The notes beneath the pieces are model-generated. The model was not told the DNA's origin, did no database searches, and saw only the letters and a list, made by a program, of their open reading frames with translations. Positions 3,390 through 26,529 of a DNA stretch of 64,000 bases are shown here, one piece after another. Made by a program: the position numbers and the translations under genes. Source of the stretch: Lama glama (Eukaryota). The stretch covers positions 11,472,001 to 11,536,000 of the forward strand of contig CM052816.1 of assembly GCA_028534125.1 (NCBI GenBank), given 5' to 3'. Within the stretch, counting starts at the first letter, position 1. Each line of letters starts with the position of its first letter.

Positions 3390-3889
3390 NNNNNNNNNNN
3401 NNNNNNNNNNNNNNNNNNNNNNNNNNNNNNNNNNNNNNNNNNNNNNNNNNNNNNNNNNNNNNNNNNNNNNNNNNNNNNNNNNNNNNNNNNNNNNNNNNNN
3501 NNNNNNNNNNNNNNNNNNNNNNNNNNNNNNNNNNNNNNNNNNNNNNNNNNNNNNNNNNNNNNNNNNNNNNNNNNNNNNNNNNNNNNNNNNNNNNNNNNNN
3601 NNNNNNNNNNNNNNNNNNNNNNNNNNNNNNNNNNNNNNNNNNNNNNNNNNNNNNNNNNNNNNNNNNNNNNNNNNNNNNNNNNNNNNNNNNNNNNNNNNNN
3701 NNNNNNNNNNNNNNNNNNNNNNNNNNNNNNNNNNNNNNNNNNNNNNNNNNNNNNNNNNNNNNNNNNNNNNNNNNNNNNNNNNNNNNNNNNNNNNNNNNNN
3801 NNNNNNNNNNNNNNNNNNNNNNNNNNNNNNNNNNNNNNNNNNNNNNNNNNNNNNNNNNNNNNNNNNNNNNNNNNNNNNNNNNNNNNNNN
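3390..3889. other. Assembly gap (500 N)
   Basis: Exactly 500 N, a fixed-size placeholder, preceded by a poly-T run. Confidence 0.99.
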
Positions 3890-23109: not shown

Positions 23110-23609
23110 NNNNNNNNNNNNNNNNNNNNNNNNNNNNNNNNNNNNNNNNNNNNNNNNNNNNNNNNNNNNNNNNNNNNNNNNNNNNNNNNNNNNNNNNNNN
23201 NNNNNNNNNNNNNNNNNNNNNNNNNNNNNNNNNNNNNNNNNNNNNNNNNNNNNNNNNNNNNNNNNNNNNNNNNNNNNNNNNNNNNNNNNNNNNNNNNNNN
23301 NNNNNNNNNNNNNNNNNNNNNNNNNNNNNNNNNNNNNNNNNNNNNNNNNNNNNNNNNNNNNNNNNNNNNNNNNNNNNNNNNNNNNNNNNNNNNNNNNNNN
23401 NNNNNNNNNNNNNNNNNNNNNNNNNNNNNNNNNNNNNNNNNNNNNNNNNNNNNNNNNNNNNNNNNNNNNNNNNNNNNNNNNNNNNNNNNNNNNNNNNNNN
23501 NNNNNNNNNNNNNNNNNNNNNNNNNNNNNNNNNNNNNNNNNNNNNNNNNNNNNNNNNNNNNNNNNNNNNNNNNNNNNNNNNNNNNNNNNNNNNNNNNNNN
23601 NNNNNNNNN
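23110..23609. other. Assembly gap (500 N)
   Basis: Exactly 500 N. Confidence 0.99.
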
Positions 23610-24599
23610 GTCTGCCTCTTCCACTTGCAGTATTTGTGCCAGTCAGCTGTGGGTAGATTAGGAGTAGAGGAGTATGGTTATGGAAGAAAAGGGCTCAAAT
23701 GTTGGACAGTTCATCTCTTGATGTCACTCTCCAGCTTTGCCACTCTTTGCCCCTTGCTTGGGGCAAAAAAAAAAAAAAAAAGACCTGGATTCTAACCCAT
23801 CTTCAGCATTTTGTCATTATCTGCTGAAAATTTAAAGATGTATTTCTTTTCACGCAAGTCATTTCACATTTAGTTTATTCAAGAGAAATGCCCAAATACC
23901 CAAAGATATATACAAAAGCATTTACTGTTACAGTGTTTGTAACTAGAGATAAATGGAACTAACCTAAACATCCATCAGGAAGGGATTGGTTCGATAAAGC
24001 ATAATGTCGTCACCCAGAGGAATATGTAGGTAGAGCTGTATGTGCTGACACGGATATAATAGAAAAGAGATTATAGGCAGTGCTCACGATACTCATAGTA
24101 TTACAGAGGGTTTTGTAAGGACAGACATCAGTGATTGCAAACTCAAATGCACATGGGGGCCAGACTGGTTTTATAAATGGGTCAGGTAGGGACTATGACA
24201 ACCTTGGGAGCACACCCTATGTGAAAGCAAATGGCACCACTCAGCTGCAGCGAATCATTGCCAATAGGGTGGCGGATCTTTGAATTTTCCAAGGAGAGCT
24301 GTTAATCACAGTACTTTTCACACTGCTTTGTAGTAGTCCGTTTCCTTCTCTGCCACCTTCAAAGCTCCATAAAAGTATCCCAATTCCATGAAACTCTTGA
24401 TTTTTTTTTATTTCGTGGCAACTAATAGAATTATCTTTAAAAATATTGTACACGATCATCTGTAAACTGGATTTGTCTTTCAGGCTCACTGCATGTCAAC
24501 CTCTGAAACACTCTTAACAATGGCTGTCTCTGGAAAATCATAGTATGGGCCACTGTCAGAGTATGGGTTTCCACTGTCTGTACATTGCTTTATGTTTGA

Positions 24600-26180
24600 C
24601 GGTTTTTTCGTGATGGTGGCAAGAAAAAGTTGATTGGTTGAAGTGCAGGGTGGGGACTATACTCATGAGGAGGGAAGGCTCAGGCCTTTCCAGTGACCTA
24701 GAAATCCACGTCCTTGACCAGGTCTTGGAGGTAGGCCTTGAACTGGTCCGAGGTGAGGGGGAGTGGATGGCTGGTGGAAATGTACAGGTCTCTGGTATTC
24801 TCCAGTGAGAAGGCACTCCTAACTGGGCCACATCTGGCAGGGAGCTGAGACACATGGGAACCACCTTGACCATCAGGAGACTCTTGATCCACAGCTGGCC
24901 CTGGGGCAATGACTCCCTGACACAGAACTATAGGGTGTAGATAATGAGTGTCTGCTTCCTTCCTTGAAGATGATCAGATCTGCCACAAAAGGTCCCAGGT
25001 CGAACATGCCTCCCTTCTTGTTCTTGGGGACCTCGCCATCATGTTGGGGACCAGCACCAGTGAGGGGCTCCTGCCACAGCCCAGTACCAGTGACAGTGCC
25101 CCAGGCTCTGGGCCCAAAGCACTGCCAGGCTCTCCACGGAGCTGATCCTACCGCCTCCCTGCCCAGGCAGCTCAGGACGTGCCGCCTGTAGCCTGTCACA
25201 TCCCGGGGCCTGATAGTCTTATTGGCTGCCCAGGCAGTGTCCTGTCCCCTGTTTCTGACCCCACTAGCCATAGGTCCTTTAGGCAGAGGACAGTGTGCTG
25301 AAAGACTTGGCACCCAGGAGGACAGTGGTCCCCTGAATTCCCACTCTCAGCAGTGGCAGCAGTGATGTGAAAAGGGAGACTGAGAGAGTGTAAGGGGACC
25401 CACTGTCCCAGCCCCCGCCCCTCCCATTCCACAGTTGGCACTCATCTTCCTCTAGTAGCAACAGCTGCCTCAGTGGGTTTTCTGGGGTGGGAGTGGGGGT
25501 CCGAGTTTGGGCAGGGAGCTGGGATCTCTAAGTTGGGGTTCAGCAAAAGGTCAGGAGGGTGCTCAGGGGCCACAGCCAGACATGAGAGCCCAGTGTCTGG
25601 TACTGGGGCCAAGCCCGTGCGACTCAGGAACTCCTCCGGGGTATTAGAGGTACCACATCTGTCACTGGCATCTGGAGAGGTATCTGACTCAGGAAAGTCC
25701 CCAACTCCTGAGGTCACAAACTCTCAGATCTAGTGCAGGTCACGGGGGTCCTTGCTCTATTCTTGGCTGAATGCAACACTTCCTTCCAGTTCGGGGCAGA
25801 CTGGAAATTCCTCTTCCAGGTCTGCAGGTCAGGCTTGTCCTTCCCAGGGGTGTAGGACCACTGGCATCCCCAGGCTGGAAGATGTGGAAGTCCTCCTGCT
25901 AGGCGTCCTGCTGCAAACCATGCTTCTGCAGGATGCGGAGGTGCACATGGCTCTGGTCCAGCCAGACCCTGCCCTCCGGCTGCCCCACGTCCAGCTGCCA
26001 CACCAGCCAGGGTAGGATCCGAGGCTTTGGGGTTCCCTTGGCCCAGTGTGGAGGGCCAGTGAACACAGTGTGCTGGGGTCCAGTCCTGCCTTTGGACTCC
26101 AGGTAGGTCTCTAGCTCATAGCTGCACACGCCCTTCCCCTGCCCGTCTGCTGAGCTTTAGAGCAACGGTGCTTTCTTTTC
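24600..26180 (-). pseudogene. IRF3: IRF3 retrocopy (semi-processed pseudogene); CDS-homologous part 24698-26039
   Basis: Colinear IRF3 peptides across frames: GTPKPRILPWLV..KHGLQQDA; PGKDKPDLQTWKRNF; SGVGDF..DTSPD; QVFQHT..LVGSETGDRTLPG; RHVLSCLG; DGEVPKNKKGGMFDLGPF; LMVKVVPMCL; SLENTRDLYISTSHPLPLTSDQFKAYLQDLV. Lesions: start ATG>AAG at 26039, TAG at 25901-25899, several frameshifts. Decayed polyA signal AATCAA (24635-24630) followed by an A-rich remnant. Confidence 0.95.
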
Positions 26181-26529
26181 TACCTAGTGCTTTTATAATA
26201 AATACACATACACATGCTTGCACTGGCCTTATGCTAAGAAGGTCTGAACCAAAGTAAATTTCCAGACCATTCCAGACAGGAGCCACTCCCAGGATTCTGG
26301 CCTTGCTTTGGTTTTGCTACCAACATTAAGAATCTCGAGTTTGGAGAACACCCCTGGGCTCATCTAGATAACACTTTAGACTAGGGTTTCTGCAGCCTTG
26401 AGCCACTTCCGGCCATGTGGGGCCATTTGAGCCCCTGAGGGTGGGAGCAGCATTTTAAGGCTGTTGAGAGAGAACGACCCCCTGTCTCATTTCCATTGTG
26501 CATCCGGAGCTTGTGGGAAAGTATCGAAG

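Follow-up and report, generated by a model that had tools for sequence, protein, structure and literature searches.

Semi-processed (partially processed) retrocopies are a class of gene copies described in two sources (PMC3449122, PMC5470649), and rodent preproinsulin I is an example. In this class, the template is partly spliced, some introns are gone, at least one intron is kept at its original position, the copy ends at the poly(A) end and it lies at a new location. The IRF3 copy of Lama glama described here shares these traits. It is a semi-processed retropseudogene and an ordinary, though tidy, example of the known class. Preproinsulin I is functional and has inherited upstream regulatory sequence, whereas the IRF3 copy is decayed and gave no evidence of a carried promoter. 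Moreover, the intron retained in the IRF3 copy is internal and of coding phase and does not lie in the 5′ UTR as in preproinsulin I.

The copy also resembles processed pseudogenes made by LINE-1 in trans, with exon–exon junctions, a 3′ end at the poly(A) site followed by an A-rich tail, a location on another contig than the parent and neutral decay. Unlike ordinary processed pseudogenes, it keeps one intron, and its target-site duplications are no longer recognisable. A fully processed contrast was seen in the same genome: an IRF7-like retrocopy (L011 2437–4823, on G000 contig C32) was 82–93% identical to the IRF7-like gene L010 on contig C36. All seven of its visible introns (64–311 nt) were removed, and it contained in-frame TGA stops. 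When the literature was searched by name, no description of an IRF3 pseudogene or retrocopy was found; a match to 'IRF3P1...' was probably a mutant name (IRF3 proline hydroxylation).

The window analysed is the whole stretch of 64,000 nt of llama DNA (GCA_028534125.1, CM052816.1, positions 11,472,001 to 11,536,000), and all positions below refer to it unless stated otherwise. On the minus strand, from 26192 to 24609, it reads as IRF3-like sequence. The region at ~24609–26192 is, judged by its sequence, an old and decayed IRF3 retrocopy.

All parts of the copy lie on the minus strand. The exon 1 equivalent (5′ UTR, 26057..26192) aligned to the parental region L005 at ~5250/5284–5379 with 73.5% identity. 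The 5′ limit of the copy lies between 26160 and 26192, with the stricter alignment beginning at 26160. The exon 2 equivalent (25876..26056) comprises the start codon and the first half of the IRF DNA-binding domain and was 77.9% identical to the parent. It is followed by the equivalents of exon 3 (25708..25875), with the second half of the DNA-binding domain and 82.7% identity, of exon 4 (25640..25707, 76.5%) and of exon 5, the linker (25446..25639, 75.7%). Downstream of the retained intron 5 (25346..25445), the exon 6 equivalent (24980..25345), with the first part of the IRF association domain (IAD), was 78.9% identical with 10 gap events. The exon 7 equivalent (24865..24979) was 77.4% identical, and the exon 8 equivalent (24609..24864), with the stop codon and the 3′ UTR, was 81.2% identical. 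Over the exons, 1105 of 1407 positions (78.5%) were identical between copy and parent at the DNA level.

A search of the genome with parental exon 6 returned five matches, namely the parent, two pieces of the copy and two IRF7-like loci. No further IRF3 copies besides the parent and the copy were found in this search. The two matching pieces of the copy had a protein identity of 65 and 43% to the query, and the IRF7-like loci had 34–35%. With these values and its DNA identity to an IRF3 parent, the copy belongs to the IRF3 lineage and is nearer to IRF3 than to other IRF paralogues.

Of the 44 ORFs with 110 aa or more in the window, 12 were compared to Pfam, and none of these had a match. Two N runs of exactly 500 each (3390–3889 and 23110–23609) are assembly gaps or withheld stretches, and the second one lies ~1 kb past the 3′ end of the retrocopy. 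Beside this gap, at about 23766–23787, the minus strand has ~20 consecutive T (A on the plus strand), perhaps the tail of a retroposon in plus orientation.

Parent and copy belong to one genome and occupy different contigs, C12 for the parental gene and C1 for the copy. The parent was found by a protein search of the genome and then by direct BLASTN, in which the copy was compared to a 16-kb stretch of C12 and gave seven blocks with 70.6–80.7% identity. A whole-genome DNA search with the insert and its flanks had the window itself as its sole match and missed the parent. The parent has eight exons, and all its introns are GT..AG, with lengths of 787, 625, 86, 662, 104, 873 and 446 nt. The spliced ORF encodes 421 aa, and these lie wholly inside a 468-aa protein listed as IRF3 isoform X1 of Vicugna pacos, with zero differences. 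This identity means that the parental exons match an independent annotation, also where the 104-nt intron is spliced out. Parental exon 6 matched PDB IRF3 chains (1.7e-70) and Pfam IRF-3 (4.3e-28), and exons 2 and 3 matched Pfam IRF.

Six of the seven parental introns (787, 625, 86, 662, 873 and 446 nt) were missing from the copy, with 0 unaligned bases per junction. The sequence-only reading, made from the window before the parent was at hand, had described five other coding junctions as contiguous. This held for all five of them, but the TQ|ED codons by which one of them had been named are absent from the copy. The list was also incomplete: a sixth spliced junction is present, at which the 5′-UTR exon 1 is joined directly to exon 2 and the 787-nt intron 1 is absent. 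The TQ|ED codons fall in a 12-nt in-frame gap relative to the parent at the exon 4/5 junction (25639/25640), which removes the codons around this site. The gap may stem from a deletion after the insertion or from an uncommon splice event, and no placement of GT or AG was found that would simply account for it.

The homology to the parent begins within the 5′-UTR exon, and no flanking parental DNA precedes it. It stops 24 nt past the parental poly(A) signal AATAAA, which has decayed to AATCAA in the copy. The last parent-aligned base adjoins an A-rich tract of 24 nt (24585..24608, 15 of 24 bases A), a probable remnant of a poly(A) tail, whereas the parent continues with unrelated sequence that is not A-rich. 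A target-site duplication above chance was not found (the best flank match of 6 nt was reached by 869 of 1000 shuffles), although this comparison has little power at about 13–17% decay per copy, and loss is expected at such an age.

A rival origin is a duplication of IRF3 at the DNA level, after which six introns would have been lost one by one. Such an origin fits the presence of one intron, but it needs six precise intron losses. Moreover, a DNA duplicate is at odds with a homology that runs from the 5′-UTR exon to shortly past the poly(A) signal and then passes into an A-rich tract. Neither intron remnants at the other junctions nor parental flanking sequence were seen. We therefore give this origin scarcely any credence. 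The loss of six of the seven introns, the kept intron 5, the end at the poly(A) site, the location on another contig and the lost coding capacity agree with the semi-processed pseudogene proposed in the sequence-only reading.

The parental intron 5 (L005 8143–8246) is 104 nt long, GT..AG and located after CDS base 595 in phase 1, with ...GAGGAAG upstream and ACTGGGAGTTC downstream. On the minus strand of the copy, ...GAGGAAG is followed by 100 nt (25445 down to 25346) and then by AGTGGGAATTC. The position of this insert is that of parental intron 5, in the same codon and the same phase (1). The insert starts with ATGAGT and ends with AG; it has G-runs in its 5′ half, and its 3′ half is pyrimidine-rich. 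The earlier description of the insert at 25346..25445, with its phase, its ATGAGT start, its G-runs, its pyrimidine tract and its terminal AG, was exact to the base. A parental intron at another codon or in another phase, which would have spoken against a retained intron, was not found. Human IRF3 presumably has a short phase-1 intron at the same codon, after c.601.

In an end-to-end alignment, the insert and the parental intron 5 were identical at 76 of 94 aligned positions (80.9%), with 16 gap columns in 4 events; given the different lengths of 100 and 104 nt and the 4 indel events, the identity of the aligned part is inflated. The alignment score was 84 compared to a shuffle maximum of 12, and it was reached by 0 of 2000 mononucleotide shuffles (z 10.7). 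When the insert alone was compared to the 16 kb of the parental region, intron 5 was the only significant match (E 1e-10), and the next best match had an E of 0.049. Within the window, no other copies of the insert were found at E <0.01. The alignment to the parental intron that had been suggested as a check, here made against the parent of the same genome, thus showed homology. An unrelated insertion that happened to hit the exon 5/6 junction found no supporting point in the data. It is refuted by the specific homology of the insert to parental intron 5, and its probability is practically nil.

We also considered whether the 104 nt had once been exonic. This was rejected because neither 104 nt nor the 100 nt of the copy is divisible by three, so that the conserved IAD would lose its frame. 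The IRF7-like paralogue, consulted on whether the intron position is ancient, has an open frame that runs ~12 codons further upstream than the start of the IRF3 exon.

The identity of the intron (80.9%) did not differ from that of the exons (78.5%; Fisher p 0.70). Identity was not locally raised near the intron, with 64–72% in 100-column windows there and 56–82% elsewhere. Because its identity equals that of the exons and no local rise was seen, the intron has the same age as the remainder of the copy and is no later addition. This is the evidence to be set against a copy that was at first fully processed and gained its intron later from the parent, through gene conversion or recombination. 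A later transfer would yield the same present-day arrangement, and nothing specific speaks for it. It should have left a tract of higher identity, but the intron, exon 5 (75.7%) and exon 6 (78.9%) show the same divergence as the other parts of the copy. The location of copy and parent on different contigs is a further point against conversion, which we hold to be very improbable.

The donor of the intron in the copy is AT instead of GT, while the acceptor AG is kept. The parental donor of intron 5 matches the consensus at 9 of 9 positions. The sequence-only reading had pointed to a mutated donor. The AT is indeed present, but it is uninformative, as it is expected from decay alone: with 18 of 94 intron positions differing (~20% divergence), the change from GT to AT needs no special explanation. 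Most simply, it is one of many later substitutions. The copy was not necessarily dead on arrival because a DNA copy with GT..AG could splice the intron out again.

A variant of the main explanation is that the template allele already carried the GT to AT change, so that a mutation and not ordinary incomplete splicing caused the retention. In its favour, the copy has AT exactly where the parent has a full consensus donor, and a donor so strong would not predict retention. However, at this divergence any given base change in the intron is expected from decay. Other splice signals in the copy are also partly decayed, and nothing polarises the timing of the donor change. We regard a mutated template as quite unlikely.

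The copy has lost its coding capacity. Its start codon is changed from ATG to AAG, it has five stops when read in the parental frame, and of its 21 indels 18 cause a frameshift. The stops are located at codon 47 (CAG to TAG), at parental codons 96, 105 and 107, and at codon 343 (TGG to TAG). When four translated pieces of the copy were compared to Pfam, the exon 2 region matched IRF with an E of 0.0061 and 17.3 bits, below the cut-off of 27, and the remaining three pieces gave no match. Failing Pfam matches are expected because the copy is a frameshifted pseudogene. The dN/dS between copy and parent was 0.40 (dN 0.191, dS 0.480; 388 codons), which is below the floor of 0.5 of a naive neutral model. 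This value was not read as past constraint because the GC-rich parent may have a higher rate at synonymous sites than the copy. The copy is a non-coding pseudogene.

The K2P distance between copy and parent was 0.258 for the exons and 0.226 for the intron. The mammalian neutral rate is about 2.2e-9 per site per year. With this rate, the distances would date the insertion to roughly 50–90 million years ago, depending on the constraint on the parent.

For the protein tree, 35 of the 120 listed IRF3 homologues were picked by taxon, and the conceptual translation of the copy was added (390 of 421 codons usable). In a first tree of 37 rows, the predicted isoforms P0001, P0003, P0018, P0029 and P0058 clustered against taxonomy (100/100); they were removed as isoform artefacts. 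In the resulting tree of 32 rows, the copy was the sister of artiodactyl IRF3 as a whole (support 94/86), which formed a group excluding the copy with a support of 99/96; the neutral branch of the copy is long (0.54 changes per column), which makes its placement in a protein tree uncertain. A grouping of the copy with camelid IRF3 alone was rejected by the AU test (p 0.0153; the best such tree was 11.15 log-likelihood units worse), with the caveat that the group was chosen after the tree had been seen.

A character count (43 rows, consensus 0.75) pointed in the same direction. The copy had the camelid state at only one of the 10 camelid-specific sites, the ancestral state at four and another state at five. 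At the eight sites shared by artiodactyls, it had the artiodactyl state at two and the ancestral state at six. By tree and characters, the insertion would predate the split of camelids from the other artiodactyls, and it probably took place on the artiodactyl stem. If so, orthologous copies are predicted in pigs, ruminants and whales.

Taken together, it is very probable that a partly spliced IRF3 RNA that kept intron 5 was reverse-transcribed and inserted in an early artiodactyl ancestor, with an estimated date of roughly 55–90 million years ago, and then decayed neutrally. The template would have been a polyadenylated IRF3 RNA from which introns 1–4, 6 and 7 were removed while intron 5 was still in place. 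It would then have been reverse-transcribed, presumably by the LINE-1 machinery, and inserted at a new site in the germline of the early artiodactyl ancestor. What remains of intron 5 after neutral decay of the copy is the 100-nt fossil at 25346–25445. The sequence-only reading had likewise proposed the retrotransposition of a partly spliced IRF3 mRNA; the six introns that are gone, the homologous intron 5 at the same codon and phase and the end at the poly(A) site support it.

Intron 5 has the highest GC content (0.68) of the seven parental introns and, with 104 nt, all but one of them are longer. According to the available part of one study, introns that are short and GC-rich are retained most often, and retained introns have on average a lower length and a higher GC content than other introns (PMC5688624). 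Intron 5 is a plausible candidate for retention because it is short and GC-rich, although its donor is a perfect consensus.

Retention of intron 5 had been predicted to truncate the protein before the IAD. In the present-day parent this is the case: the frame shifts, and a stop follows after 40 foreign residues. By the usual rule, a message that retains intron 5 would be a target of nonsense-mediated decay. Its product would end before the IAD and in this resemble IRF3a, IRF3-nirs3, IRF3-CL, IRF-3b to 3f and mouse IRF-3a, in which the DNA-binding or association domain is truncated or removed.

The table of IRF3 isoforms in a review, in the part of the article available, lists products of exon skipping and of alternative splice sites and none that arises from the retention of intron 5 (PMC8636596). 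Accordingly, the intron-5-retaining isoform that would be fossilised in the copy is absent from that table (PMC8636596). A long-read study of isoforms in the interferon response describes IRF3 isoforms of the 5′ UTR and isoforms that lack domains, and its accessible text does not mention the retention of intron 5 (PMC11602592).

A bolder reading is that the retention of intron 5 is an ancient regulated hold on IRF3 (a 'detained intron') that stem artiodactyls already used in their germline. The copy would be its fossil, older than about 60 million years and common to camels, pigs, ruminants and whales, and its locus may to this day give rise to a non-coding RNA in reproductive tissue. We consider this whole proposal unlikely; the low divergence of the intron (19%) and the word shares in RNA runs are hints and not tests of it.

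Between the parental intron and the fossil, 19% of the aligned positions differ, compared to 29% of third codon positions and 35% of synonymous sites. The lower divergence of the intron could hint at constraint on the short intron 5, in a small sample and a gapped alignment.

Four RNA-seq runs of one study (reproductive system metagenome) contained 0.25–0.33 of the sampled words of the copy (window 24607–26192). This is not evidence of expression, and the share could reflect transcription, pre-mRNA of a host gene or carry-over of DNA. Five runs of unspecified kind contained 0.86–0.90 of the copy's sampled words, which is not evidence of expression either.

The practical value of the copy is modest, and the knowledge of IRF3 function is unchanged. 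Caution is advised in the annotation of camelid IRF3 and in RNA-seq analyses, as intron-retaining reads can be confused with the copy locus. The copy provides an old outgroup sequence for the short, GC-rich intron of IRF3. It is also a marker insertion that should probably be common to artiodactyls. For the biology of the group, the copy would record that a polyadenylated IRF3 message retaining intron 5 was present in germline cells of early artiodactyls.
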